Of a stretch of DNA of 64,000 bases, positions 902-52,177 are shown piece after piece. The stretch is taken from the NCBI GenBank assembly GCA_905233765.1, contig CAJOCU010000005.1, forward strand, positions 31,811 through 95,810, given 5' to 3'. The notes below the pieces were generated by a model. The model was not told where the DNA came from. It ran no database searches and worked only from the letters and a program-made list of their open reading frames with translations. Source of the DNA: an uncultured Bacteroidaceae bacterium (GTDB taxonomy: Bacteria > Bacteroidota > Bacteroidia > Bacteroidales > Bacteroidaceae). The translations under genes were made by a program, and so were the position numbers. Each line of letters starts with the position of its first letter. Positions within the stretch are counted from its first letter, which is position 1.

Positions 902-2224
902 ATGGAACCGTTGCACCAACATATTGCTTTCCTGTGTGGACATTTTAAGGTCTCTGGGGCCCCTTCTTCGAAGGCGTTGCAGGGTCTGGGATGGGAGAGG
1001 TTCAATCTCCCGGAGAACGTGAGAAGGATAGAGAAAAGGTTTTTCTATCCAGAATACGTGGATTTCTGCTATGCTGATGCCTCGGGCAAGAGTTGCACCA
1101 GGTATGTGAAGCATGTTGACGAGGAGTTGGAGATCAGCGTAAAGGAGAAGGTCATCCGTTTTGGTGTGAAGGAGATCACGCTCTATCTGATGCCATTTAG
1201 GATGGCGATGTTCTCGATTCATATTGAGCAGACGACGAACGACTTGGACGACTGTACGGCGTTGCTTTTCAGCCTTCGCTCCATTGACTATTACACGGAA
1301 GCGCACGGTGCGTTTGTGGAGAAGGCGATACGACCATTCATGGACGTGTTCGAAGTCCTGACGGGTGCGAAGGCGATGAGCTACTCGGAGCTGATAGACA
1401 ATGGTAACAAGTTGCGTATCTTTCAGATTGTCAATACGATGGATGCGGACATGGCGGCATGGACAGAGGCAGATAAGGACAAGGTGCTGTATGAGTTGGC
1501 GACAGTGTCGAAGATCACGAGGCCTGGGGAGGTGGATGACTACAGCGCTTCGGCGGCATATCTGGAGAAGATCATAGAGCGCAGTAAGATCTCGGTGTTC
1601 CGTAACTGGAGTGGTCTGGCGTTAATGGACACGTTTACGATTCATGCTTTTGGTGTGTCTGTGAGGTTTGTCAATAACTGGGTTGACAGTTACTTCAGGA
1701 TGATTTATATCCATAGTATTTTCCAGAAGAGTTATCTGTTCAACCTGAATATACGTTTCCGGAACTCTTTGGCTCGCTCGTCGGCTTCGTGGAAGTCGAA
1801 GCTTCGAAACCTGCATATACAAGGAACGAACGTTGGTCAGTTGGTGGAGGAGTATGAATCGTTTGAGCAGAAGTGCTGTTTTCACAAGATTTCCTATAAT
1901 TTCCTGCCGCTGGAAATTGCCGCCAGCATTGACAAGGGGCTGGAGATTCAGGAGGAGATGGCGCAGCTATACAAGATGATGGAGAAAGAGAAGACCCGCC
2001 GCGACGAGGCTAACGACAAGATGGTGAACACGCTGCTGTTCAGTCTCTCGTTGCTGACGCTCTTCTCGGCCATTTGGGATATCAGTTGTCTGTTGGACCA
2101 GATGTATCCTTTTGCCGAGTATTTGGGCGGTCAGCCGTTGGGCTATCGGACCGTTGCATTGTTGTTGTTGTTGGGCGTCAGTGTCCTGCTGCTGGTTATC
2201 TATCGGAGGAAGCGGGTGGAGTGA
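902..2224 (+). CDS. hypothetical membrane protein with a soluble N-domain, a helical stalk and two C-terminal TM helices (CorA-like topology, no GMN motif)
   Basis: Taken from ORF 776..2224, with the start moved to MEPLHQH at 902 because the promoter box lies inside the longer ORF. The C-terminus reads NTLLFSLSLLTLFSAIWDISCLL, loop, TVALLLLLGVSVLLLVIYRRKR. It converges on the NRPS 3-prime end and overlaps it by 29 nt. Confidence 0.6.
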   Translation: MEPLHQHIAFLCGHFKVSGAPSSKALQGLGWERFNLPENVRRIEKRFFYPEYVDFCYADASGKSCTRYVKHVDEELEISVKEKVIRFGVKEITLYLMPFRMAMFSIHIEQTTNDLDDCTALLFSLRSIDYYTEAHGAFVEKAIRPFMDVFEVLTGAKAMSYSELIDNGNKLRIFQIVNTMDADMAAWTEADKDKVLYELATVSKITRPGEVDDYSASAAYLEKIIERSKISVFRNWSGLALMDTFTIHAFGVSVRFVNNWVDSYFRMIYIHSIFQKSYLFNLNIRFRNSLARSSASWKSKLRNLHIQGTNVGQLVEEYESFEQKCCFHKISYNFLPLEIAASIDKGLEIQEEMAQLYKMMEKEKTRRDEANDKMVNTLLFSLSLLTLFSAIWDISCLLDQMYPFAEYLGGQPLGYRTVALLLLLGVSVLLLVIYRRKRVE

Positions 2225-5200
2225 AGAAGTCGAAGCCGACGATGGTATCTACGAAGCGGTGGACGTAGTCGGCAGCGGTGGTGGGCCACTGGAAGCCGAG
2301 GCGATAGAGCACCTGCGTAGTGTATTCGTTGTCGGCCTCTATCCAACGCGTCTTATGACCAATGCCCATGTCGTAGGCCATCAGCGGACGTAACAGGGTG
2401 ACGAGGTCGGGATTCTCCATCATCTTCTCTAATGCCTGTTGATATTCCTCGTTCTCTACACGCTTTAGCGTAATGCCTGCCTCGGAAAAGCCTGTGAGGA
2501 TATCGCTGAGGAACTGGCGATGGGTGTTCGAGGGATGGAACACCATGCACTCTTTCGGTGTCTGTGCCAACAGCATAATGGCGTGGGCCACCTCGTCGAT
2601 GGGGGAGAACTCGAAACGCTGGTCGAGGGCTTCGTAGGGCACCATACCTATCACGACATAGGCACGCAACTTGGCCAGGAAGTTGTTGGTGTTGAAGTTG
2701 ATTTGGAACTCACCATCCTTCTGACGTGCCGACAGGTTGCCCACACGCATGATTTTGGCATTCAACCCATGGTTAGCAATGGCGTCAAGCACCAACTCCT
2801 CGGCCTTGTACTTCGAATAGACGTACTTGTTGGCATCGATATTCTGCCCGATATCAAGCAGTTGTTCTGTCAACTTCACCTCAGGCCCTGGCACGTTGTC
2901 GACGCTGATGCCTGCAATGCTGTTCGTGGAGATATGAATCAGGCGTGAACCTGTGCGCAGGCAGAAGGTGATGAGGTGGCGCACCGACTCAATGTTCACC
3001 ATTTCTATGTCGTTGCCCGCAGAGAAATGCTTCACGTTGGCTACGCAGTTGATGACCGTTAAGGCCCCACCCCCGCCCCCTCCCCTGTTAGGGAGGGGAG
3101 CATTGTCTAGGGCATTGGGCTGTGTGACCTCTGCTGCGAAGGCGGTGATGCGCTCGCCAAAATGCTGGAAGGCCTCTGTCTTACCGAAGTAATAGAAGTA
3201 CATCGTCTTCAGACGGCTCGTGGCCTCCTCGTCGCCTTTCGCGCGGATAGGACAGAGGATGTGCCCCTCGTAGTTCGTCAACAGCTCGTTCAAGATATGG
3301 ATCCCGAGATAACCCGTAGCCCCTGTCAGCAGCACATCGCCAATAGGCTGACGTTTTCCATTGTGGAATGAAGAGAGGGTGTTCTTTGTGAGGATGGAAG
3401 GAGCCCCCCCCACGGCCCCCGAGGGGGCTTCTATTGTTGCGTTGTCAGAGGACATTTGTATAGTGTCCCCCTCGGGGGACGACAGGGGGGCTCTCACAAA
3501 TGCAGCCAACGCCTTGGGTGTCTTCAGATTGAACAGGTCGTTGAAGACAATCTGCACGCCGTGTTTGCTGGCTTCCACGATGACCTTGATGGCATTGATG
3601 CTGGTGCCGCCAATCTCGAAGAAGTTGTCCGTGGCGCCTACCTCCTGAATCTTCAGTACGTCGGAGAAGATGGTGCAGAAAAGTTCTTCCATCTCGCCCT
3701 TTGGTGCCTCATACTCGGTGGCACGCTTCATCTCTGGTACAGGCAGTGCCTTGCGGTTGATTTTACCGTTGGGCGTCATCGGCATCACCTCCATCTTCAT
3801 GTAGACATCGGGCACCATATAGTCGGCCAGAGACGAGGCTTTGAGGGCGGTGCAGATGTCTTCGTCTCCGATGGCAGAACCATCGGACACAGTATAGTAA
3901 AGCACCAGGTGCTCGTTGCCCTGCACCTTGCGCACCTCGGCAGCGGCCTGACGGATGCCTTCGATGTTGAGGGCCTTGTTCTCGATTTCGCCCAGCTCGA
4001 TGCGGAAGCCGCGCAGTTTCACCTGGGTGTCGATACGACCGAGGTATTCAAGCTGTCCCTCGTCGTTCCAGCGGCAGAGGTCTCCGGTGTGGTACATCCG
4101 CACGGGACGTCCCCAGCGGTCTTCCTTCACGAACGGACAATCGACGAACGATGTTGCAGTGCGCTCCGGCAGACGCCAATAGCCGCGCCCCACCTGAATA
4201 CCGGCAAAGCATAGTTCACCGGCTACGCCCTGTGGCACGAGATTGCCAGCTGTATCCACGATGAAGTTCCAGTTGTTGGCTACGCTTTGGCCGATAGGAA
4301 TATTCTCCACACGACGGCCAGGAGCGATGGCGTAGTAAGAGGTGTCGTCGGTACACTCCGTAGGACCATAGACATTGATGATCTCGATGTGGTCGCTATA
4401 GACACCGTCCATCTTCTCGCCGCCACCCGTGGTGAAGCGGATAGGCAGGTCGTCGAAGGCATTGAGCAGCAGACTGGTCATCGCGGTGGAATAGCCGCCC
4501 CCCGTACACTGATGGTCGATGAGGAACTGGCGTATCTGTGCAAGGTCCTTGCGAATCTCCGTCGGCATGACATGGAACGAGCCACCCAGCGTCAGCACAG
4601 GATACATATCCTCGATGTGGGCATCGAACGAGAACGAGCGGTGTCCGCTGATGCGGTCGGCAGCCGTCAGTTTCTCCATATCGATGACCACAGCAATGAA
4701 GTTACGCAAGCCGGCTTGATGGAGCATGGCGCCCTTGGGTTTGCCTGTGGAGCCGGAGGTGTAGATCATATAGGCAAGGCCATCGGGAGAAGATAAATCA
4801 AGGGGTGTGTCGGCGGGTAAACCGCCGACCGCACTGGCCATGAAGTCATCAATGAAGAAAGTACGGGCGGCAGCGGTGCTGAAGTCGCCCTCGGCCTGCT
4901 TTGCTTCAAGGACGGCATGAGTGGTAATCAGCACTTTCGACTCCGAATTCTCCAGCATATAACTCAAGCGTTCGTTGGGGTATTCGAAGTCCAGCGGCGT
5001 ATAAGCGGCACCGGCCTTGTGGATTGACAGCACGGCCAACGGGAACTCCTTGAAACGGTCGAGCATGACGCAGACGAAATCATTGGGCTGTACGCCGAAA
5101 TCTATCAGCTGGTGCGCCAATGCATTCGAGTAATTATCCATTTCAGCGTAGGTCAACTGACTGTCCCTATCCACCACAGCGGGGGCATCGGGCGTTCGCT

Positions 5201-8200
5201 TGGCCTGTTCGGTGAAGAGGTTGGCAAAGGTCTTACTAATGTCGATGTCGATTTCCTTTCCCGTACCTATTTTAATAATGCGCTGGGCCTCCTCGTCGCT
5301 GACAATGCTAATACTGGTCAAGGCTGCATCGGGCTTTGCTATCATCCGTTCTACCGTCACCTTCACGGCATCTGCGAGACTCTGCATCAAACGGGCAGAG
5401 TATTTTCCGTTGTCATATTCTACACAGACACATGCCTGACCATTGATGTCGCGGATGAAGAAAGTGATGGGGAACTTGGGTACTTGAAGTTCCAGACCTT
5501 CTATCTCCAAGGGTGTACCCTGACAGACGTATTGGCTGATCATGCCCAATTGATAAACAAGCTGAATCTCAGCCGTCAAACCGTAGTCGGCAGCAATCTG
5601 TGCAAACGGATAGTTCTCGTGGCGAAGGGTCTCGTCGAAGTTTTCGCTGACCTCCTGCAGGAACTCCTTCACACTTTGTTTTCCGATAGTAGCACTCAGA
5701 GCCAGCGTATTGACAAACATGCCCACGGTGTTGCGGATGTGTAGGTTGGAGCGACCGCTTGAGACGGTGGTAATGCAGACCTGCTCGTTGTTGGCAAATC
5801 GCGACAAAGAATAGTAAATGGCCGACAGAATCAAATGGGCCGGCGTGATATGGTTGCCACGACAGAAGGCATCGATAGCCTCGAAATCAAGAGAAGAGAT
5901 GGCTTTGCCGATTGTTCCCTTCGAGGGGTTCGGCAGGTCTGGACGCACCTCCGTAGCGGTTTCTACTACGGACAGCCGTTCTTTAAAGAAATCCTTGGCA
6001 GCCTGATAGTCTGCCCCACCTTCTGCAACTTTTTCGGCTGTCACATAGGCCGCATAATTCTGGTCTTCATCCTCAATGGAATAACCATTGAGCACACTGC
6101 ATAGCTGCTGGAGGAAGATATCAACAGAACCACCATCGAATATCAGGTGGTGCACATCCATCATCAGATAGGTCTGCCGTTCTGTAGTTACTATCTCAAA
6201 ACGATAGAGCGGACCCTTGTTGAGGTCGAAAGGACGTACAAAGTCGTGCTTATATGATGACAACTCCTCCTCGCTCATCTGCTTCACAGGAATCTCCACA
6301 GCCTGCTCCAAATCAACGGTCTGTACGATGCCCTCGTCTCCGTTACCGAAGTGAGCGGTCATCTCAGGATGCACCTTCACAAGCGTCCTGAGGGCCTCTG
6401 CCAATTGGGCAGTATCCGTTTGCTGCGGGAAAGCAATCTTGTTAGGAATGTTATAGAGCGTAGTCTCCGGATTCTTCAAACAGTCGAAATAGACACCTGT
6501 CTGGGCGTAGGACAGGGGGACAGCCTCACCCCCATCCCCTCTCCAGTAGAGGGGCGTAGATAGATTCTGTTCTTGAGAGTGACCACTCCCCTCGCCCTTT
6601 GTGAGGTTTCTCCATATCTCATTTTCAATGCTCTGCAGGGTGCCGCTTTTGACAAGAGACTTTGAATCTAATGTCACGCCATAGCGCTTATTCACCTGAA
6701 TGGCCAATTTAATGGCTGAGATAGAGGTGAGTCCGGCATAGCCCAAAACAGTTGTGATGCCGAAATCCGTGTTTCCAACGATGGCCGCAATCATCTCATG
6801 CAGTTCCTGCTCGAGGACGTTTAAGGGAGCCTGCTCGGTTTGTTGCGATGACATCGCAACAGACTTGACGGGTTTCGGCAGGGCGCGTTTGTTCACCTTC
6901 TGGTTTTGGTTCAATGGAATCTTGTCAATCTGCATCGTCACTGCAGGCACCATGTAGGGCGGTTTCTGATCAAGGATAAAGCTATTTAAAGCTTCGGTGT
7001 CCACCTGTTGGTCGCTGACGATATAGGCCGCAATGAACTTGCCGCCATTCTCGTCATCGAAGGCCTGCACCGTGGCATCCTTGATGCCGGGAAACTCGCG
7101 AATGACAGCTTCCACCTCCTTCAGCTCAATGCGGAAACCGCGAATCTTCACCTGGCCATCCCTGCGGCCGATGAACTGCAGGTTGCCGTCGGGCAGCCAG
7201 CGCACGATGTCGCCAGTCTTATATACCCGAGCATATTTTTCATTGTCTGTAAAGGGATTCTGAATAAACACTTCTGCGTTCTTGTCCGGTCGGTTCAGGT
7301 ATCCGAGTGCCACTTGCGGTCCGGCTACCCACATTTCACCCATAGCCCCCACAGGCAGACGACGTCCCTGTTGATCGACTACATAAAGCCGCACATTGTC
7401 CAAAGGTTTGCCAATGGGGACATCCGTATCTTTCTTTGTGATAGGATAGACAGTGATGATGATGGTGGCCTCCGTAGGACCATAGCCGTTGTGCAACTGA
7501 TAGCCTTGAGGCGGAGCGATACTGGCCAGTTTCTCGCCAGCCACCGAGAGATGCATCAAGGAGTGATTCTCAATGTTCGTTGCAAACTGATAGCCCACCT
7601 GTGTAGTCATGAAGGTATGGGTGATGTGTTCGCGCTCCAGGTATTCGTTGAGCGACACAAGATCCAGGCGCAGTTCCTCAGGGATGATGTGCACGGTGGC
7701 ACCGCGCGTCAGTGGCGGATAGATACCCTCCTGATGGACATCGAAACCATAGCTGGCATATTCAGCCACATTATGCTCTGGCTTTAGGTCGTAATATTTC
7801 CAGTACCAGTTGCAGTAGCATACCAGATTGGCATGTGTCAGTTGGCAACCTTTGGGAATGCCTGTCGAGCCGGAGGTATAAAGGAGGATAAAAAGAGAGT
7901 CGGGTTTCGGTTCCGTAGGCTGCGACAGAGTCGCAGCTAACGAAAGCAGGTCCTTGGTCAGCAGCACTTCGCCCTGATATTCGTCAACGAGGTCACGCAA
8001 CTCCTCGTCGGCAATGAGCAACTTCGCGCCGGCATCTTTCATCATGAAGTTCAGGCGTTCCTTCGGATAGCTGGGATCCAGCGGCTGATAGGCACAGCCA
8101 GCCTTCAGCACGCCGAGTGAGGCAATAGCCATCCACTCGCAGCGAGGAATGATGACAGAAACGGCATCGCCCACGCCCAGTCCTTTGGATACGATATAGC

Positions 8201-9614
8201 CTGCAATGCGGTCGCTGATGTCATCTACCTCGGCATAGGTGTAACGATGGTCCTTGAAAACGACGGCTTCGGCATCTGGTGTGGCCTTGGCCTGCCGGCG
8301 GAACAGCGACACCACCGTCTGGGTGTCATCATAGGGACGGTCTGTATCGTTGAACGAGTCGAGAAGCTCCACCTGCGAAGCTGTGGTAATATTGATGTCG
8401 CTCAGTTTTTCTTCACTGAGGAACCCCGCTACCACCGCCTCATAGCTTTCCATCAACTGGGTGATAAGCAACTCGCTATACATATTGGCGCTGTATTCTG
8501 CCTCCACACAATAATGGCCGTCCTTCGTGTATGCCTTCAGATAGAGCGGCATCTCGCGGGTGTTGTTGTTCAGACGTCGGGCTGTCATCGGCTTGCCGCA
8601 TAGTTCCAGACTATCGAACAGGGGTCCGTGCCAGACAAAGAGTGTGGCAGCCTGCAGTCCCAAGTCTGCGGCTACGTCAGCGTATGCGTAGGCCTCGTGC
8701 TGGCGCTGCCCCATCATTTGCCGCTCCCCAGCCCTCAGGAAGTCGAGCACGGTGGTGTCGTTGTCAAACTTCGTATAGACGGGCAATGTTCTTACCAACA
8801 TGGCTACCGAGTGGGCCAGACGCTTATCGGCTCGCCCATTGTGTATCGTGTTGAACAGCACCTGCTGCTCGTTGTTGTATTTCGCCAGCAGAAAGCTGTA
8901 GGCTGCCGTGAAGAAAGTGCTCTTAAAGATGTCGTGCTCCTTGCAATAGGCTTCGACAGCATCGATGGCTACATTCATCGTCCGCGTCAGCAGACCCTCT
9001 TGAGGCTCTTCTCCGTCCAAATCGGGCAGCAACGGTGAATAGCAGTCGCCGCAATCGAAGTTTTCTGCATACCATTTTTTGTCCTCCTCAAAGGCCGGAC
9101 TCTCGCGCTGCGCAGCCTCAGCCTGGGCTACCTCGGCCAAAGTCAATGCCTCGGCCTCTAACGTTTCGCCACGATAGGCTTTCTCGATGTCGGCCAGCAG
9201 CACCTTTCTCGATGTGCCGTCGCTGATGATATGGTGGATGTCCTGCAGCAGATAATAGTGCGCAGCATCCTTTAGCAGACGGATTCGGAACAAACGGTCA
9301 TGATACAGGTCGAAGGGCTTGACGAAACTGTCGATGGTCATCTGTGGGTTGTCAACGGTCTCGACCTCGAGACTGAATGTCTCGCTATCGCAGATGGTTT
9401 GCACGGCATCGCCCTGCTCGTTCAACTCGATGCGCGTAAACAGCGTCGGGTGGGCCTTCACGGCAGCCTCGATGGCCGCCGTCAGTTTTTCCTCGTCCAA
9501 ACTGGCGTCTAAGATGTAAACATAGGGTATGTTATAACAAGCCTCTCCCTGGTGGTTGACACATTCCACGTAGAGACCATACTGCGTTTTAGTTAATGGC
9601 GCGGAAATCTTCAT
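2196..9614 (-). CDS. bimodular non-ribosomal peptide synthetase, domain order C-A-T-C-A-T-R (terminal thioester reductase)
   Basis: 2472 aa ORF. C1 motif HHIISDG is at about 9216-9236. A1 core LLYTSGSTGIPKG is at about 7858-7896, and A1 also has NGYGPTE and KVNKRALP. T1 reads LGYAGLTSISAIKL at about 6720. C2 motif HHLIFDGGS is at about 6131-6157. A2 core MIYTSGSTGKPKG is at about 4741-4775, and A2 also has NVYGPTE and NGKINRKALP. T2 reads FFEIGGTSINAIKV at about 3600. The R domain has LLTGATGYLGIHIL at about 3301-3340 and YSKYKAEE. No TE domain is present. Confidence 0.95.
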   Translation of the reverse strand: MKISAPLTKTQYGLYVECVNHQGEACYNIPYVYILDASLDEEKLTAAIEAAVKAHPTLFTRIELNEQGDAVQTICDSETFSLEVETVDNPQMTIDSFVKPFDLYHDRLFRIRLLKDAAHYYLLQDIHHIISDGTSRKVLLADIEKAYRGETLEAEALTLAEVAQAEAAQRESPAFEEDKKWYAENFDCGDCYSPLLPDLDGEEPQEGLLTRTMNVAIDAVEAYCKEHDIFKSTFFTAAYSFLLAKYNNEQQVLFNTIHNGRADKRLAHSVAMLVRTLPVYTKFDNDTTVLDFLRAGERQMMGQRQHEAYAYADVAADLGLQAATLFVWHGPLFDSLELCGKPMTARRLNNNTREMPLYLKAYTKDGHYCVEAEYSANMYSELLITQLMESYEAVVAGFLSEEKLSDINITTASQVELLDSFNDTDRPYDDTQTVVSLFRRQAKATPDAEAVVFKDHRYTYAEVDDISDRIAGYIVSKGLGVGDAVSVIIPRCEWMAIASLGVLKAGCAYQPLDPSYPKERLNFMMKDAGAKLLIADEELRDLVDEYQGEVLLTKDLLSLAATLSQPTEPKPDSLFILLYTSGSTGIPKGCQLTHANLVCYCNWYWKYYDLKPEHNVAEYASYGFDVHQEGIYPPLTRGATVHIIPEELRLDLVSLNEYLEREHITHTFMTTQVGYQFATNIENHSLMHLSVAGEKLASIAPPQGYQLHNGYGPTEATIIITVYPITKKDTDVPIGKPLDNVRLYVVDQQGRRLPVGAMGEMWVAGPQVALGYLNRPDKNAEVFIQNPFTDNEKYARVYKTGDIVRWLPDGNLQFIGRRDGQVKIRGFRIELKEVEAVIREFPGIKDATVQAFDDENGGKFIAAYIVSDQQVDTEALNSFILDQKPPYMVPAVTMQIDKIPLNQNQKVNKRALPKPVKSVAMSSQQTEQAPLNVLEQELHEMIAAIVGNTDFGITTVLGYAGLTSISAIKLAIQVNKRYGVTLDSKSLVKSGTLQSIENEIWRNLTKGEGSGHSQEQNLSTPLYWRGDGGEAVPLSYAQTGVYFDCLKNPETTLYNIPNKIAFPQQTDTAQLAEALRTLVKVHPEMTAHFGNGDEGIVQTVDLEQAVEIPVKQMSEEELSSYKHDFVRPFDLNKGPLYRFEIVTTERQTYLMMDVHHLIFDGGSVDIFLQQLCSVLNGYSIEDEDQNYAAYVTAEKVAEGGADYQAAKDFFKERLSVVETATEVRPDLPNPSKGTIGKAISSLDFEAIDAFCRGNHITPAHLILSAIYYSLSRFANNEQVCITTVSSGRSNLHIRNTVGMFVNTLALSATIGKQSVKEFLQEVSENFDETLRHENYPFAQIAADYGLTAEIQLVYQLGMISQYVCQGTPLEIEGLELQVPKFPITFFIRDINGQACVCVEYDNGKYSARLMQSLADAVKVTVERMIAKPDAALTSISIVSDEEAQRIIKIGTGKEIDIDISKTFANLFTEQAKRTPDAPAVVDRDSQLTYAEMDNYSNALAHQLIDFGVQPNDFVCVMLDRFKEFPLAVLSIHKAGAAYTPLDFEYPNERLSYMLENSESKVLITTHAVLEAKQAEGDFSTAAARTFFIDDFMASAVGGLPADTPLDLSSPDGLAYMIYTSGSTGKPKGAMLHQAGLRNFIAVVIDMEKLTAADRISGHRSFSFDAHIEDMYPVLTLGGSFHVMPTEIRKDLAQIRQFLIDHQCTGGGYSTAMTSLLLNAFDDLPIRFTTGGGEKMDGVYSDHIEIINVYGPTECTDDTSYYAIAPGRRVENIPIGQSVANNWNFIVDTAGNLVPQGVAGELCFAGIQVGRGYWRLPERTATSFVDCPFVKEDRWGRPVRMYHTGDLCRWNDEGQLEYLGRIDTQVKLRGFRIELGEIENKALNIEGIRQAAAEVRKVQGNEHLVLYYTVSDGSAIGDEDICTALKASSLADYMVPDVYMKMEVMPMTPNGKINRKALPVPEMKRATEYEAPKGEMEELFCTIFSDVLKIQEVGATDNFFEIGGTSINAIKVIVEASKHGVQIVFNDLFNLKTPKALAAFVRAPLSSPEGDTIQMSSDNATIEAPSGAVGGAPSILTKNTLSSFHNGKRQPIGDVLLTGATGYLGIHILNELLTNYEGHILCPIRAKGDEEATSRLKTMYFYYFGKTEAFQHFGERITAFAAEVTQPNALDNAPLPNRGGGGGGALTVINCVANVKHFSAGNDIEMVNIESVRHLITFCLRTGSRLIHISTNSIAGISVDNVPGPEVKLTEQLLDIGQNIDANKYVYSKYKAEELVLDAIANHGLNAKIMRVGNLSARQKDGEFQINFNTNNFLAKLRAYVVIGMVPYEALDQRFEFSPIDEVAHAIMLLAQTPKECMVFHPSNTHRQFLSDILTGFSEAGITLKRVENEEYQQALEKMMENPDLVTLLRPLMAYDMGIGHKTRWIEADNEYTTQVLYRLGFQWPTTAADYVHRFVDTIVGFDFFTPPASSDR
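3063..3101. repeat. GC-rich palindromic unit, in-frame inside the NRPS reductase domain (encodes PLPNRGGGGGGA)
   Basis: ggccccacccccgccccctcccctgttagggaggggagc. A C-rich arm, a GTTA loop and a G-rich arm. It aligns with the units at 50622, 43471(rc), 6519 and 43400. Confidence 0.7.
3401..3493. repeat. 93 bp MITE-like composite with ~28 bp terminal inverted repeats, in-frame in the NRPS T2-R linker
   Basis: The left end is gagccccccccacggcccccgagggggc. The reverse complement of the right end is gagcccccctgtcgtcccccgagggggac, about 24 of 28 identical. The core is a 36 bp AT-richer stretch. 93 nt equals 31 codons (APLSSPEGDTIQMSSDNATIEAPSGAVGGAPS). Confidence 0.7.
6511..6606. repeat. GC-rich repeat unit(s), in-frame in the NRPS T1-C2 linker
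   Basis: 6519 gacagcctcacccccatcccctctccagtagaggggcg aligns with the family. A second partial C-rich unit, ccactcccctcgccctttgtgagg, is at 6583-6606. Together they encode LTKGEGSGHSQEQNLSTPLYWRGDGGEA. Confidence 0.55.
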
Positions 9615-42124: not shown

Positions 42125-42619
42125 TTAAGATTCAATTTTCAATTGCTCTCTGAGTCTGTCGCGTCCTCGTGAGAGTTGCTTCTTGACGGCATCTTCCGAG
42201 GCATCAGTGATCTTGGCTATCTCCTTGATGTTATAGCCATTGAGGTAGAAAAGCGTGATAGCTGATCGTTCCTTGGGCGGCAGGGCGCGCAGGGCCAGAT
42301 AGAGGTCTTGGTGCTCGAAAGTGGAAGACCCCTCTTCGTCTCTCCCGAGGGGGAGGGATTGAATCCGTGGGTCATCGATGCTCTCCATCGTCCGTTGGCC
42401 TGCCCGATGATTTAGGAAAGTGTTGTGAGCAATCTTGAAGAGCCACGAACGGAAGCGTCCTTTGTCCTGATAGCCAGCCGACGAGAGATAAGCCTTCACC
42501 AGCGCGTCTTGCGCCAGGTCGTCGGCATCGCTTTGGTTGCCGCAGCAGAGGGCGAGCAAGAAGCCTCTCAGTGCCTCCTGCTCACGCTCCACATGTGCTA
42601 TGAATTCTTCGCGAGTCAC
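42125..42619 (-). CDS. ECF (sigma-70 family group 4) RNA polymerase sigma factor
   Basis: Region 2 reads DADDLAQDALVKAY...FRSWLFKIAHN. Region 4 reads ALPPKERSAITLFYLNGYNIKEIAKITDASEDAVKKQLSRGR. GTG start. A GC-rich repeat unit sits in the region 2-4 linker. Confidence 0.85.
   Translation of the reverse strand: MTREEFIAHVEREQEALRGFLLALCCGNQSDADDLAQDALVKAYLSSAGYQDKGRFRSWLFKIAHNTFLNHRAGQRTMESIDDPRIQSLPLGRDEEGSSTFEHQDLYLALRALPPKERSAITLFYLNGYNIKEIAKITDASEDAVKKQLSRGRDRLREQLKIES
42324..42360. repeat. GC-rich palindromic unit, in-frame in the ECF sigma region 2-4 linker (encodes SLPLGRDEEGSS)
   Basis: gaagacccctcttcgtctctcccgagggggagggatt. It shares the gaagaccc terminus and the arm-loop-arm layout with 43400 and 43578. 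Confidence 0.65.
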
Positions 42620-43248: not shown

Positions 43249-43719
43249 TCAGTTGCCGGCCAGCAAATCATAGCGTATCTCATCGCAGAGCATGGAGCAG
43301 CCAGGGGAGGGGGCCGGTTCGGCCTGTGCGGTTTGTAGTTGCGATGTGGGGACTGGAACTCGGACGATGCGGGTCTCGTAAATGGTGTCGTGGATGACTG
43401 AAGACCCACCCTCCTGTCCCTCCCGTGAAGGGAGGGATGTCTCGCTACGCTCAATAGCTGCGCGCAGCATCTCCCCTCCATCACGGGAGGGGTCGGAGGT
43501 GGGGCTTCCTATTCCCTTTCCCACAAAGAATCCTACCACCAGTGCAGCTGCGACAGCGCCCCACCATAGCGGAGTGGGAAAAGACCCTCTCCCCGCTCCC
43601 CCGTGAGGGGGGAGAACCTTGCTTCGCTCGAAGGGGCTGGGCGCCACGTTGAGTTGTTCGTTTTGCTCGTCGCGAAGGTCGCGGGCGGCGGAGATGATAT
43701 CAGAATCTTGAAGCTTCAT
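43249..43719 (-). CDS. single-pass membrane protein downstream of an ECF sigma factor (anti-sigma-like), about one quarter of it made of repeat units
   Basis: 156 aa with the TM segment LWWGAVAAALVVGFFVG. It carries three GC-rich units. Confidence 0.5.
   Translation of the reverse strand: MKLQDSDIISAARDLRDEQNEQLNVAPSPFERSKVLPPHGGAGRGSFPTPLWWGAVAAALVVGFFVGKGIGSPTSDPSRDGGEMLRAAIERSETSLPSREGQEGGSSVIHDTIYETRIVRVPVPTSQLQTAQAEPAPSPGCSMLCDEIRYDLLAGN
43400..43508. repeat. ~109 bp MITE-like composite: two GC-rich units in inverted orientation (~40 bp TIRs) flanking a 31 bp core, in-frame
   Basis: The left end is gaagacccaccctcctgtccctcccgtgaagggagggatg. The reverse complement of the right end is gaagccccacctccgacccctcccgtgatggaggggagatg. 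The two are clearly alignable along their whole length. Confidence 0.7.
43578..43617. repeat. GC-rich palindromic unit, in-frame (encodes VLPPHGGAGRGSF)
   Basis: gaaaagaccctctccccgctcccccgtgaggggggagaac. Nearly identical to the reverse complement of 50687-50720 (cctctccccgctcccccataagggggaggg). Confidence 0.7.
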
Positions 43720-43743: not shown

Positions 43744-44325
43744 TTAAACGTTAAACGAGATTTCTTTATACTCTTTCAACTGCCTCCGTATGAGTTGCAT
43801 CGTCTTGTGCAATCGGCTCTTGACAGTCCCCATGGGTATTTCGAGGATGACGGCTATCTGCGGCACAGTGAGCTCTTCCTCGTAGCGGAGGGAGAAAAGG
43901 AGGCGCAAAGGTGCTGGGAGATTGTCGAGTACGGCAGCAAGGGTGCGCTTCAGCGTCTCACGATCCATCTCCACTTCGATGTTTTCTGTGGTCATTGGCT
44001 CTGCATCTATGGTGGCGAGGAAATAGGCTTCGTAGGCATTGCGGCGATAACGGTTACGGCAGAGGTTGTAGGCGATGGTGAACAGCCAGGTGGCGAAGTC
44101 GCGCCCTTTGACATAGCGGTCACGAGCTTCGAAGAGGCGAAGGAAGGTGTCGTGCGTGGCATCTGCCGCTGCATCTTCATCGCCGCCCAGCTGGCGGAAG
44201 AAGAAACCTTGCAGCCGACGGGCATAGCGGCGATAAAGTTCATCGAAGGCCGCATCACTGCCAGCGCCGACGCGCAGCATCAGCTGCTCGTCGGACTGAC
44301 TTGAAAGAAGGAATCGTCTCAGCAT
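43744..44325 (-). CDS. ECF (sigma-70 family group 4) RNA polymerase sigma factor
   Basis: Contains AFDELYRRYARRLQGFF, FATWLFTIAYNLCRN and NLPAPLRLLFSLRYEEELTVPQIAVILEIPMGTVKSRLHK. Confidence 0.85.
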   Translation of the reverse strand: MLRRFLLSSQSDEQLMLRVGAGSDAAFDELYRRYARRLQGFFFRQLGGDEDAAADATHDTFLRLFEARDRYVKGRDFATWLFTIAYNLCRNRYRRNAYEAYFLATIDAEPMTTENIEVEMDRETLKRTLAAVLDNLPAPLRLLFSLRYEEELTVPQIAVILEIPMGTVKSRLHKTMQLIRRQLKEYKEISFNV

Positions 44326-50398: not shown

Positions 50399-52177
50399 TT
50401 AAACCCTTGCGCTTGAGCTTGCTCGCTTCGCTTGCGAAGAACACTTTGAATCTTCTCCGGCCAATACGTGCATCTCACAGCGGCGGCAGTCGAAGCGTAG
50501 GGGGAAGGTGCGGCCGTCGGCCAGGCGCAGGCGCAGGGGCTCGCGGAAGGGGAGGCCCCGCCCGTCGCGCGTGCAGTAACCGAGGGCATGGCGGAGGCAG
50601 TAGCGGCAGGTCATGAGAGGAGACTCACCCCCGGCCCCTTCCGTTAGGGAGGGGGAGAGGCTGGCGCACAGCTCATGAGCGGTAGCGAAACCCTCCCCCT
50701 TATGGGGGAGCGGGGAGAGGATATTCTCTGACACCACCTCTCTCCTCCATTCTCCCAGCACAGAGGCAGGAATGAACCAGTTGTCGGAAAGTTGGATTTC
50801 AATGTCTGCTTCGGTGCAGGTATAGGGTGTGTCGCCGAGGCGCATGAGTTGGCGACGGATATTGTCGGCCTGTGGGGTGCGAGCTAGTTCGTGAGGGTAG
50901 GAGAATGAAGAATGAAGAGTGAAGAATGACGAATGCAGGGTGAGGCGGAAGCCGTCGTCAGTGTCTTCAAGGAGCCAGCGGACGGGGATGCGACGGTCGG
51001 CAGTGGGTCGAGCAAGCTGTCGCTCGAAATCAGCATCGAGATTGCGATAGAGAGGTCCCCCTTTAGGCAATTGCGCAAGGATGGAAGGGTCGGTGGGGAA
51101 GATGCGTCCCTGCTCATCCACGCGGTTCACGCGGAAGCCCTGCAGACGGCCTTCGGCATCGAAGAAGCAGAGGCCGTCGCCATTATGAATAGCGGCCCCA
51201 CCCTCGGTGAGCTTTTCTCCAATGGACTTCGGCGTGGCGAAGTTGGCCATATCGCGTGCGCGACCGTGCAAGAAGTAATCGGTGAAACCGCGGTTAAAGC
51301 TCTTCTGAAGGTCGGGAGTAAAGGTAATGGCTGAGGTGCCGTAGGAGGCGCGGGAATAGTCGTCGGGACGTCGCGCGATGATTTCATCAATACGCTGACG
51401 GTAGTAGGCCGTGGTGTTCTTGACGTAGGCGACATCCTTCAGGCGTCCCTCGATTTTGAAACTGCTGACGCCGGCATCCATCATGGCTTCGAGGTCGGCG
51501 GCGCGGTTCATGTCGCGGAGCGAGAGGAGATGGCGCTGCTTTTCCAAAACCTTCCCATCGGCATCGATGAGGTCGAAGGGGAGGCGGCAGAACTGGGCGC
51601 ATTCTCCGCGGTTGGCGCTGCGTCCGAAGCAGTACTCGCTGGCATAGCAGCGTCCGCTGTAGCTGACGCAGAGGGCACCATGTATGAAGGCTTCAAGGGG
51701 CATCTCGGGCACCGCCTCGTGGATGGCGCGGATATCATCCAGGGAGAGCTCGCGGGCCAGAACGGTCTGTTCGTAGCCAGCCTCGGCACGCGCACGAACA
51801 TCGTCAATCGTGCGGTTGTCCATCTGTGTGGAGCTGTGCAGGGGTAGAGGAGTTGAGAGCTGAGAGTTGAGAGTTGGGAGTTGAGGGTCTTGGACAATCA
51901 ATGCATCCACGCTTATGGCAGCAAGGTCGTTGATGAGGGCTTGGGCCGCTGGGAGCTCCTCATTGTAAAGTAGGGTGTTGACCGTCACATAGATTTTCAC
52001 TCCGTAAGGATGGGCATAATGCACGAGCTCGGCAATGTCCTCTACGCTGTTGCCTGCTGCGGCGCGGGCACCAAAGCGTGGAGCACCAATATAGACAGCA
52101 TCGGCGCCGTGACGAATGGCCTCGATGCCACACTCCAGGTTGCGGGCTGGAGCAAGAAGCTCAATGGATCTCTTCAA
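50399..52177 (-). CDS. peptidase U32 family protein (extended, 592 aa)
   Basis: Contains ELLAPARNLECGIEAIRHGADAVYIGAP, LHSSTQM and CYASEYCFGRSANRGECAQFCR. TTG start in the track. It carries two GC-rich units and two heptamer arrays. Confidence 0.85.
   Translation of the reverse strand: MKRSIELLAPARNLECGIEAIRHGADAVYIGAPRFGARAAAGNSVEDIAELVHYAHPYGVKIYVTVNTLLYNEELPAAQALINDLAAISVDALIVQDPQLPTLNSQLSTPLPLHSSTQMDNRTIDDVRARAEAGYEQTVLARELSLDDIRAIHEAVPEMPLEAFIHGALCVSYSGRCYASEYCFGRSANRGECAQFCRLPFDLIDADGKVLEKQRHLLSLRDMNRAADLEAMMDAGVSSFKIEGRLKDVAYVKNTTAYYRQRIDEIIARRPDDYSRASYGTSAITFTPDLQKSFNRGFTDYFLHGRARDMANFATPKSIGEKLTEGGAAIHNGDGLCFFDAEGRLQGFRVNRVDEQGRIFPTDPSILAQLPKGGPLYRNLDADFERQLARPTADRRIPVRWLLEDTDDGFRLTLHSSFFTLHSSFSYPHELARTPQADNIRRQLMRLGDTPYTCTEADIEIQLSDNWFIPASVLGEWRREVVSENILSPLPHKGEGFATAHELCASLSPSLTEGAGGESPLMTCRYCLRHALGYCTRDGRGLPFREPLRLRLADGRTFPLRFDCRRCEMHVLAGEDSKCSSQAKRASSSARV
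50622..50720. repeat. 99 bp composite of two GC-rich units in opposite orientation flanking a 26 bp core, in-frame in the U32 peptidase
   Basis: 50622 is gactcacccccggccccttccgttagggagggggagagg and 50687 is gaaaccctcccccttatgggggagcggggagagg. Together they encode ENILSPLPHKGEGFATAHELCASLSPSLTEGAGGES. Confidence 0.7.
50891..50946. repeat. tandem heptanucleotide array (8 units, RTGARGA) inside the U32 peptidase gene
   Basis: gtgaggg taggaga atgaaga atgaaga gtgaaga atgacga atgcagg gtgaggc. The coding strand gives TLHSSFFTLHSSFSYP, a 7-aa peptide repeat. Confidence 0.65.
51853..51887. repeat. tandem heptanucleotide array (5 units, YTGAGAG) inside the U32 peptidase gene
   Basis: ttgagag ctgagag ttgagag ttgggag ttgaggg. 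The coding strand gives PQLPTLNSQLST. Confidence 0.6.

Follow-up and report, generated by a model that had tools for sequence, protein, structure and literature searches.

In yeast mitochondria, GC clusters or 'byp' hairpins are GC-rich elements in protein-coding genes that are bypassed by the ribosome, and in Rickettsia only part of the copies of the palindromic elements (RPEs) lie in ORFs. Rickettsia and a few REP-rich Proteobacteria and Verrucomicrobia account for most known cases of genes colonised in frame by palindromes. RPE-1 and related Rickettsia palindromic elements are summarised in PMC3733652. The REP, BIME and REPIN sequences with RAYT transposases, which include intragenic GTAG- and CGTC-tagged REP dimers, are described by Di Nocera et al. 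2013 (PMC3733652). REPs in general are mostly intergenic, and the REP doublets found inside ORFs encode 20-30 aa in Opitutus terrae and R. conorii (PMC3733652). Bacterial MITEs, among them Correia/NEMIS, RUP, ERIC, Nezha and those of Porphyromonas gingivalis (PMC2575886, PMC5771137), form a third group for comparison. The 93-nt feature described here is very probably a copy of a multi-copy family of small palindromes in rumen Prevotella/Prevotellaceae, and in-frame palindromes would thereby extend to a genus that is dominant in the rumen and whose genomes are large and not reduced. The family is apparently undescribed; the literature on Bacteroidales/Prevotella in-frame palindromic, MITE or REPIN elements yielded only the P. 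gingivalis MITEs and a general REP survey.

The element lies in a 64-kb stretch of DNA, the whole of which was analysed (the window), inside a gene for a nonribosomal peptide synthetase (NRPS). It is located between the end of the PP-binding domain (aa 2040), directly downstream of the second carrier domain in the protein, and the start of NAD_binding_4 (aa 2096). The features of the locus are as follows.

2196..9614, minus strand: host gene, a 2472-aa NRPS of architecture C-A-T-C-A-T-R.
3495..3680, minus strand: second carrier (PP-binding) domain, aa 1979-2040, Pfam PF00550; its helices are folded in the AlphaFold model.
2577..3329, minus strand: terminal thioester-reductase domain (NAD_binding_4), aa 2096-2346, Pfam PF07993 and PF01370; AlphaFold pLDDT mostly 80-96.
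3401..3493, minus strand: whole palindromic element within the limits of the earlier note, GAGCCCCCC...GGGGGGCTC.
3403-3491: element body by the family definition, 89 nt.
3463..3491, minus strand: 'A' arm, mRNA sense GCCCCCCTGTCGTCCCCCGAGGGGGACAC, encoding APLSSPEGDT.
3403..3431, plus strand: 'B' arm, plus strand GCCCCCCCCACGGCCCCCGAGGGGGCTTC, mRNA sense GAAGCCCCCTCGGGGGCCGTGGGGGGGGC, encoding EAPSGAVGGA.
3432..3462, minus strand: AT-richer variable core, mRNA sense TATACAAATGTCCTCTGACAACGCAACAATA, encoding IQMSSDNATI.
3415..3428, no strand assigned: B-arm intra-arm stem-loop, GCCCCCGAGGGGGC = G CCCCC GA GGGGG C.
3465..3480, no strand assigned: A-arm intra-arm stem-loop, GTCCCCCTCGGGGGAC = GT CCCCC TC GGGGG AC, as read on the plus strand.

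The earlier note, made from the window alone, had described a 93-bp inverted repeat at 3401-3493 with a hairpin of its own in each end and an AT-richer core. Sequence and position were confirmed, with a repeat search returning 34-nt arms (3401-3434 and 3460-3493) that are 79% complementary at a spacing of 25 nt, and the core has a G+C content of 13/36 (36%) versus 52.9% in the window. The core retains remnants of the subterminal CTATAG...CTATAG motif of the family, and the body is bordered by GA/TC, compared with AA/TT in most other copies. Read through as protein, the element stands in the context ...VR APLSSPEGDTIQMSSDNATIEAPSGAVGGAPS ILT.... Its folding energy was -33.4 kcal/mol as DNA (z -5.65) and -60.8 kcal/mol as mRNA-sense RNA (z -5.3), levels matched by 0/200 shuffles. 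No second copy of the arms or core was found elsewhere in the 64-kb window, and no direct repeat was found at the borders of this copy. An Rfam search of the window gave nothing at gathering score; the sole E-value match, mir-1294, was rejected as a generic hairpin (23.9 bits versus a gathering score of 90).

Relatives were abundant in other genomes. Rumen Prevotellaceae MAGs, at least 50 of them, with RGIG3793, RUG13587 and UBA3837 among the carriers, gave more than 118 loci in a scan with the arm consensus. A genome has several of these loci, and only 2 of the listed matches were off target. In the loci listed, full elements number 80 and solo arms 57. An HMM built solely from copies in other genomes matched window positions 3402-3492 on the minus strand with E = 3.5e-19. 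In a tolerant arm search the A arm was recovered at 3463-3491 on the minus strand and the B arm at 3403-3431 on the plus strand, each with 1 mismatch; the same A arm is present in loci L001, L007, L112 and L119. The family can be divided into subfamilies by core. The earlier note had suggested searching the genome for other copies of the core, and relatives of it were found in three other 89-nt copies (L114, L098 and L065) with 20/31 ungapped matches, compared with a shuffle 99th percentile of 17. On this comparison the window core is homologous to the 89-nt subfamily. Ten pairs of elements are at least 93% identical while residing in unrelated genes or genomes.

The unit of the family is a 29-nt arm, in which a C-run tail precedes a C5/G5 stem-loop of 6 bp. 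An arm may stand alone or be joined with another in an inverted doublet, and tandem partial arrays are also present. The doublet is laid out as A arm, CTATAG, variable core, CTATAG and B arm, and most are 77-95 nt. The closing pair of the intra-arm stem covaries (G-C 83, T-A 34, C-G 10, A-T 2, non-pairs 5), whereas the long arm-to-arm pairing is mismatched at the same positions in A-B elements; the covariation thus supports the intra-arm hairpin, including the hairpins that had been noticed in the window copy. The flanks are palindromic or inverted, with the form AA|...|TT.

Residence in reading frames is the most regular property of the family. All 80 full elements have a length of 2 mod 3; 76 of them lie in long ORFs, and 75 of these 76 are in phase 0. 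This holds although three to four of the six frames are open, and the null P is about 1e-14. Solo arms behave similarly, with 51/57 in ORFs and 47 of the 51 in phase 0. The shared phase-0 peptide, AP[LP]S[SA]PEGDT...EAPSGAVGGA, is rich in Pro, Ser, Gly, Ala and Glu and provides linkers of 10-30 residues; peptides from different hosts align as AP..PEG..T...PSGAVGGA. These reading-frame statistics suggest that the element peptide is translated. The survey as a whole supports the earlier view of an inverted-repeat element read through as protein, and shows that the element is dispersed in many copies. The yeast 'byp' hairpins are similar as GC-rich hairpins colonising protein-coding sequence; the Prevotella element would differ from them in being translated rather than bypassed, to judge from its fixed phase, absence of stops and in-frame lengths (80/80). 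Enrichment in coding DNA was considered and not upheld. A first control put 92% of copies in long ORFs versus 69% of random segments, and a fairer gene-tiling control placed 129/136 copies (94.9%) inside tiled genes, which does not differ significantly from the tiled coding density of 91.3% (p = 0.085). We claim only that copies are not depleted in coding DNA.

The hosts are diverse, identified proteins, among them MetH, MutS2, PriA, topoisomerase, AlaRS, ArgRS, GcvP, ABC-F and GH97/35/115/31 proteins, many of them essential. The element either separates two Pfam domains or interrupts one within a loop. In AlaRS the loop segment measures 67 aa with the element compared with 41 aa in 97/119 Bacteroidales orthologs. 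Judged by these lengths, the AlaRS copy is a net insertion in a variable loop of a conserved host. New linker and loop sequence may quite generally arise from elements of this type, also in essential enzymes such as aminoacyl-tRNA synthetases, PriA and MetH. Unusual insertions rich in Pro and Gly in annotations of Prevotella MAGs, and possibly some genes called in fragments, may be due to them as well.

In orthologous insertions arm identity is 95.7%, compared with 79.8% in the flanks and 65.7% at third codon positions of the flanks, and the conservation in these orthologous pairs includes synonymous positions, far above the neutral flank rate. This would be consistent with preservation of the inserted arms as DNA or RNA, for which continued recognition, gene conversion among copies or a function of the hairpin might be responsible. 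It also speaks for a rival proposal, that the palindrome is kept mainly as a nucleic-acid structure, either an mRNA hairpin that delays the ribosome between domains and so assists co-translational folding or a DNA or RNA site for protein binding, with mobility secondary or extinct. The very stable mRNA hairpin and the location of copies at domain boundaries and loops fit this proposal, as does the avoidance of C6/G6 runs elsewhere in the window (10 observed versus ~24 expected). However, hosts and positions are heterogeneous, and some copies sit well inside catalytic domains (GH35, AlaRS, topoisomerase), which makes a shared folding pause difficult to defend; the element is absent from most orthologs of each host; and the near-identity of dispersed copies extends to their cores, which points to copying rather than convergence. 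We consider a purely structural explanation improbable, although such a role is compatible with the family reading as an addition to it.

The earlier note took the TIR-core-TIR architecture as transposon-like and the element as MITE-like. A classical MITE would be an internally deleted DDE-type IS moved by cut-and-paste through a transposase that recognises the terminal inverted repeats. The terminal inverted repeats are indeed present, the arms are conserved across a multi-copy family with subfamilies defined by core, and near-identical copies are found in unrelated genes. Like bacterial MITEs, the elements are small, encode no transposase and form stable hairpins. The target-site duplication that the earlier note had proposed to look for was, however, seen in 0/72 copies (direct repeats of k = 2-8), the window copy being no exception. 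Single arms are as frequent as paired ones, tandem partial arrays exist as well, the conserved unit is the intra-arm stem-loop favoured by the covariation, and no IS with the element's ends was found in ~0.97 Mb of fetched sequence (8-kb windows around matches). Functional single arms and in-frame positions inside genes, not beside them, are further differences from bacterial MITEs, and a classical MITE is very improbable. A chance low-complexity palindrome or assembly artefact, to which the hypervariable linker of all homologs and error-prone homopolymer runs might have lent some credit, is already refuted by the shuffles, the family HMM, exact arm matches at the more than 118 loci, which stem from independent studies and different assemblers, and the intact frame in 75/76 copies.

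The absence of target duplication, a stem-loop in each arm and the occurrence of single arms therefore argue for a REP doublet rather than a classical MITE, and the organisation of the family is, on this anatomy, that of REP singlets and doublets (REPIN/RPE-like). As in REP/REPIN systems, the unit is a short imperfect palindrome that forms singlets, head-to-head doublets able to fold into a longer hairpin, and clusters; target duplication is absent, and doublets in ORFs encode peptide. REPs have a conserved GTAG or CGTC tag at one end (PMC3733652); in the Prevotella family CGTC stands immediately 5' of the stem in the A arm and CGGC or CTGC in the B arm. The Prevotella stem comprises 6 bp of C5/G5 and the covarying closing pair, compared with stems of 8-9 bp with A-T at positions 1-2 in CGTC families 1-4 (PMC3733652), to which it conforms in neither length nor composition. 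The location also differs: ~95% of detected Prevotella copies are intragenic, whereas REPs are mostly intergenic (PMC3733652), and no RAYT gene of the Y1 HUH type flanked by repeats was seen in the fetched loci. The likeness to RPEs is that of dispersed palindromic repeats of ~100 nt that reside in frame in functional, often essential genes, with the same frame and a similar peptide across hosts, apparently translated at tolerant linker or surface positions (the last partly from AlphaFold). The coexistence of several RPE families in one Rickettsia genome is counted as a likeness as well. Unlike RPEs, the elements belong to Bacteroidota that are free-living rumen commensals, have unrelated sequence and carry arms of C-run/G-run stems; given the phylum and this composition, homology to a named Rickettsia RPE family is not expected.

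A family of REP doublets of this kind might spread as non-autonomous DNA, with the mobilising enzyme supplied in trans and recognising the stem-loop of the arm in single-stranded DNA. By analogy with RAYTs and REPINs, we tentatively propose an enzyme of the HUH/Y1 type, which would fit the absence of target duplication, the covariation of the stem-loops and the occurrence of singlets. The few intergenic copies have housekeeping genes as neighbours, with no mobilising gene beside them, and very close relatives yielded no clean filled/empty pair from which exact boundaries could be read. Surviving copies would be the phase-0 insertions only, in linkers and loops that tolerate changes of sequence and length; in-frame indels and the loss of older linker residues would then bring the linker back to its preferred length. 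A somewhat doubtful extension of this scheme is a REPIN-like family specialised for coding sequence, in which the arms would be actively maintained by a hairpin-binding enzyme or gene conversion and insertion biased to coding DNA or to loops. As an in-frame 'flexible linker cassette', the element would time and again reshape essential proteins of rumen Prevotella at their inter-domain linkers and surface loops. If true, this would be a host-element relationship unlike that of extragenic REPIN-RAYT systems or of the decaying RPEs of reduced Rickettsia genomes. The many natural filled and empty sites lend themselves to study of single-phase persistence, synonymous-site integrity of the arms and the effects of intragenic hairpins on translation.

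Finally, we consider the T-R linker of the host NRPS. The earlier note expected the element to lengthen this linker by 31 residues. This simple insertion is ruled out, as orthologous linkers are equally long: measured from the Ser of the carrier domain to TGATGYLG, the element-bearing window NRPS has 95 aa versus 90-104 aa in element-less orthologs (70-83% identity), and homologs of 46% identity have 84-90 aa. Hypervariability of the linker extends to all homologs compared, and one ortholog reads 'SDGQASATNTVV...PEAEHFAPLN' there. From these alignments, the element fills the hypervariable middle of a length-constrained T-R linker with the overall length unchanged, and it has taken the place of most of the semi-conserved 'PEAEHFAPLNALL' stretch. 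In the AlphaFold model the T and R domains are folded, fragment residues 85-108 between them form coil (pLDDT 30-52), and the element-encoded segment is predicted to be disordered. For NRPS engineering, this is a natural T-R linker with its sequence wholly replaced and its length kept.

The same element is found at the same T-R site in the NRPS orthologs at loci L104 and L001; compared with L104, the arms of the window copy match at 54/58 positions and the core at 16/31. The T-R copy is common to another species' ortholog and so appears to be inherited rather than recent. The three orthologs with an element at this site are ungrouped, not monophyletic, on the R-domain tree; the gene is mosaic, with identity to L104 of 31% in C2, 89% in A2 and 83% in R, and because of this the tree is a weakened test of a single ancestral T-R insertion. 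At a site in A2, the L104 element replaces a 9-11-aa stretch of the window NRPS and does not split that stretch. The window sequence 'ASAVGG' was rejected as a decayed remnant of this A2-site element, its DNA being without palindrome or arm similarity; it resembles the element peptide weakly and at the peptide level only. Searches with the 40-aa peptide were of no use for a census: a protein word index returned only 3 candidates, and an index-free comparison with cluster representatives returned 15 matches, several of them to unrelated low-complexity proteins.

The palindrome at 3401-3493 is embedded in the gene for a non-ribosomal peptide synthetase (NRPS), in the linker between its last carrier (T) domain and its reductase (R) domain.

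Host gene and internal palindromes of the element
2196..9614, minus strand: host NRPS gene, 2472 aa, C-A-T-C-A-T-R by Pfam
3416-3427: intra-arm palindrome CCCCCGAGGGGG in one arm, from a palindrome search
3467-3478: complement of the CCCCCGAGGGGG palindrome in the other arm, from the same kind of search

Read directly, the sequence runs GAGCCCCCCCCACGGCCCCCGAGGGGGC, a 36-nt core and GTCCCCCTCGGGGGACGACAGGGGGGCTC; a repeat search returned arms of 34 nt each (3401-3434 and 3460-3493) that are 79% complementary across a 25 nt gap. The PP-binding domain extends to residue 2040 and NAD_binding_4 begins at residue 2096, and the element is translated in the NRPS frame as APLSSPEGDTIQMSSDNATIEAPSGAVGGAPS. 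It folds as a single long hairpin, both as DNA (-33.4 kcal/mol, z = -5.65) and as mRNA-sense RNA (-60.8 kcal/mol, z = -5.3), and none of 200 shuffles folded as well. C6/G6 runs are rarer than expected in the window (10 versus ~24), and 4 of the 10 lie inside this element. Its core is indeed AT-richer than its surroundings, as the earlier note described, at 36% G+C compared with 52.9% across the window.

A scan of one genome per GTDB species with an arm consensus suited to both arms, GCCCCCCNNNCGNCCCCCGAGGGGG, matched more than 118 stretches, all but 2 of those among the matches listed coming from ruminant Prevotella, Prevotellaceae or Bacteroidales MAGs. The family spans at least 50 species-level genomes, with up to 10 loci per genome among the matches listed. 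A tolerant arm search in the matched loci gave, among the matches listed, 80 full elements and 57 solo arms. Full elements read A arm GCCCCCCTKTCGTCCCCCGAGGGGGACAC, (C)TATAG, a variable core, CTATAG and the reverse complement of B arm GCCCCCCCTACGGCCCCCGAGGGGGCTTC; B-B and A-A pairings also occur, and most full elements are 77-95 nt long. The copy in the window belongs to the 89-nt size class, with the typical A-core-B' layout. A profile HMM trained solely on copies from other genomes matched it with E = 3.5e-19, and the same search found no further family copy in the 64-kb window. The core, too, has relatives elsewhere, with 20/31 ungapped identities to three other 89-nt copies (shuffle 99th percentile 17), and 10 pairs of whole elements in unrelated genes or genomes share at least 93% identity. 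The number of loci, the HMM score, the core match and these near-identical dispersed pairs rule out an artefact or a chance palindrome of GC-rich sequence, a reading that the shuffled folds also contradict.

Among the matches listed, all 80 full elements have a length of 2 modulo 3, and 76 of the 80 reside in long ORFs, 75 of these in the phase GCC-CCC-... (phase 0). Since three to four of the six frames are open per element, the null probability of a single phase is ~1e-14. The aligned peptides follow AP[LP][ST][SAP]PEG[DGA][TS] ... [EV]APSGAVGGA, and a similar peptide is read from either strand because of the palindromic symmetry. Solo arms add just 'APLSSPEGDT' or 'EAPSGAVGGA'; 51 of the 57 among the matches listed are in ORFs, 47 of them in phase 0. 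Hosts include MetH, MutS2, PriA, type IA topoisomerase, AlaRS, ArgRS, GcvP, an ABC-F ATPase, a GltD-like oxidoreductase, a PFOR-type enzyme, GH97, GH35, GH115, GH31, an arabinofuranosidase, an OPT transporter and an AraC regulator, with the element between Pfam domains or splitting a domain at a loop. By greedy gene tiling, 129/136 copies among the matches listed (94.9%) are in genes compared with a coding density of 91.3% (p = 0.085); coding DNA thus shows no depletion of the family, in contrast to ordinary REPs and MITEs, and we make no stronger claim. The A-arm peptide often contains D-T-I or D-T-A (for example at window 3463-3491). The general O-glycosylation sequon of Bacteroidetes is D-(S/T)-(A/I/L/V/M/T), which these tripeptides resemble; the likeness would be relevant solely for exported hosts such as glycoside hydrolases.

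AlaRS offers a clean length comparison because this host is well conserved. Between anchors, the segment measures 67 aa when the element is present, compared with 41 aa in 97/119 Bacteroidales orthologs, and the loop that hosts it in two loci from other genomes (L119, L005) has a canonical Bacteroidales length of 7 aa, indicating a net insertion of ~26 aa into a 7-residue loop. In the same loop, the closest Prevotella AlaRS relatives have unrelated low-complexity expansions of 9-22 aa, and another clade has a conserved 13-aa insertion (orthologs P0137-P0140, P0159, P0170, P0171).

We then compared the NRPS linker itself across 120 homologs of the T-R region, all from Bacteroidales and mostly metagenomic.

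Distance from the carrier-domain serine to the TGATGYLG motif
Query NRPS: 95 aa
Relatives at 70-83% identity, nearly all without the element: 90-104 aa
Relatives at 46% identity: 84-90 aa

The earlier note had proposed that the element lengthens this linker, which these distances do not bear out. In most relatives the linker sequence is hypervariable and unrelated, and a semi-conserved 'PEAEHFAPLNALL' follows it; in the query this stretch is largely displaced. The similar lengths in element-less relatives, together with this displacement, argue that the linker is hypervariable in sequence and constrained in length, and that the element occupies rather than extends it. An AlphaFold model of the T-linker-R fragment (46 aligned homologs, mean pLDDT 78.9) folds T and R with confidence and leaves fragment residues 85-108, within the element-encoded 83-114, as coil with pLDDT 30-52. 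This low-confidence coil between two folded domains predicts that the peptide is a disordered tether from carrier to reductase.

Three orthologs carry elements at the same T-R site. In L001 (protein P0005) the element is homologous: the left arm is identical, the core is only 9 nt and the arm carries a 21-nt tandem duplication. L104, from a Prevotellaceae MAG, has the query's element with unchanged boundaries and a core two codons shorter. In L002 (P0045) a 110-nt element matches in architecture and differs in sequence, GCCTCCC..CCCCTCCGAAGGAGGGG, with arms 94% complementary. The L104 NRPS is 31% identical to the query in C2 beside 89% in A2, 85% in T and 83% in R, so the gene is mosaic, which suggests domain-level recombination. 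In an R-domain tree the three element carriers are interspersed among element-less orthologs which, the gene being mosaic, may reflect recurrent colonisation, loss or recombination. A further family member sits within A2 of L104, following FFIDDFM; the query reads 'ASAVGGLPADT' there. Unrelated to the palindromic element, a TAG stop at 2946-2948 of L002 (JGI contig) lies inside the carrier domain (KHGV*IVFNDLF) and splits the NRPS into C-A-T-C-A-T' and R; such splits may be the source of some 'stand-alone reductase' ORFs among the database matches.

The element had been likened to a MITE, and its inverted arms around a core fit that description. Target-site duplications, however, were absent: none of 72 copies has a direct repeat of 2-8 nt at its borders, and the flanks are instead palindromic, with AA before the element in 50-58 copies and TT after it in 43-49. 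Tandem partial arm duplications occur in eight loci (L001, L021, L052, L024, L047, L072, L094, L108). Singlets, inverted doublets, tandem partial arms and the lack of target duplications together argue for a REP/BIME/REPIN type of organisation rather than a DDE-type MITE. The hairpin noted within each end is borne out. Within one arm, the bases immediately 5' of C5 and 3' of G5 covary (G-C 83, T-A 34, C-G 10, A-T 2, non-pairs 5), and the same positions mismatch in the long arm-to-arm hairpin of A-B' elements, which points to the small intra-arm stem-loop as the conserved structure. Mobilisation would occur in trans, by an enzyme recognising this stem-loop on single-stranded DNA (HUH/Y1, RAYT-like); no such gene was found beside the few intergenic copies. 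Across four orthologous pairs, arm identity is 95.7%, compared with 79.8% for the 150-nt flanks and 65.7% for flank third codon positions; between query and L104 the values are 54/58 for arms, 16/31 for the core and 78% for flanks. The gap between arms and third codon positions indicates that arms are kept at synonymous positions far above the local neutral rate, despite the host's avoidance of C/G runs, and points to a DNA- or RNA-level constraint or to concerted evolution with other copies.

Among known systems, the family is closest to the Rickettsia palindromic elements, likewise in frame, in a constant frame and at tolerant positions, and it agrees with the RPE-like criteria tested; the other closest phenomenon is the intragenic REP dimers of Di Nocera et al. 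(PMC3733652), which are common in Opitutus terrae and R. conorii and code for 20-30 aa. It departs from MITEs in target duplication, from REPs in extragenic location, and from the defined CGTC families in stem and loop rules, yet its A arm has CGTC adjoining the stem. Rfam holds no matching family, and our literature searches turned up no account of elements like these in Prevotella or Bacteroidales, an absence that is not proof of novelty. Collectively, both the family and the lineage that carries it are new, within an already known kind of element, palindromic repeats that colonise coding sequence in frame. The observation is genuine and extends well beyond a single NRPS locus; of the original proposal, the repeat architecture read through as protein stands, and the lengthened linker and classical MITE do not.

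The window contains 6 C/G-run hairpins (stems of 6 or more, with one base making up 75% or more). Counted with the two CCCCCGAGGGGG palindromes, they compare with 0.45 expected from Markov simulations, and every one is inside an ORF.

Other repeats in the window
43405-43504, in minus-strand ORF 43249..43719: second composite palindrome, 100 nt, same architecture, different sequence
50621-50716, in U32 peptidase gene 50399..52177, minus strand: third element, in frame as 'SPLPHKGEGFATAHELCASLSPSLTEGAGGES' after the DUF3656 domain
6524-6554, NRPS T-C linker: 'half element' CCCCTCT-ACTG-GAGAGGGG-AT-GGGGGTGAGG, translated PLYWRGDGGEA
3060-3100, R domain loop of the NRPS: C/G-run hairpin (3077-3098) and G-rich tail, read as 'PLPNRGGGGGGAL'
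50903-50944, U32 peptidase gene, DUF3656 region: direct-repeat-like stretch TTCTTCACTCTTCATTCTTCATTC, read as 'LTLHSSFFTLHSSF'

The 43405-43504 palindrome has 33 nt arms, 76% complementary, with inner hairpins CCCTCCC-GTGAA-GGGAGGG, and is in frame as 'GSPTSDPSRDGGEMLRAAIERSETSLPSREGQEGGSS', directly following the TM helix predicted for a 156-aa protein. This protein is probably an anti-sigma factor; its gene lies downstream of that for an ECF-type sigma factor (43744..44325). The element shares the core TCGCTAC(C)GCTCA..AGCTG.GCGC(C)AGC with that at 50621-50716, whose first hairpin recurs at 43585-43615; this shared sequence defines a second dispersed family, housed in genes of this genome. 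Different repeats occupy the same R-domain loop in the query and in L104 ('SANSQLSTLNSQL'), marking the loop at 3060-3100 as a hot spot for different repeat families; AlphaFold confidence there is low at fragment residues 219-222. The 'half element' type also occurs at L034, L075, L078, L094 and L114, and close relatives CCCCTCTCC..GAGAGGGG..GGGGGTGAGG ('PLLWERAGGEA') are dispersed in Prevotella loci, about half in ORFs. In the L079 ortholog a main-family arm ('NEAPSGAVGGARPLSYAQTG') replaces it in the same T-C linker. The 50903-50944 stretch looks like a further type of short repeat, again in frame. Finally, a marginal arm-like HMM match (E = 0.31) at 42325-42354, in the ECF sigma factor ORF 42125..42619, contains CTCCCGAGGGGG, read as 'SLPLGRDEEG', and may be a decayed family arm or chance.
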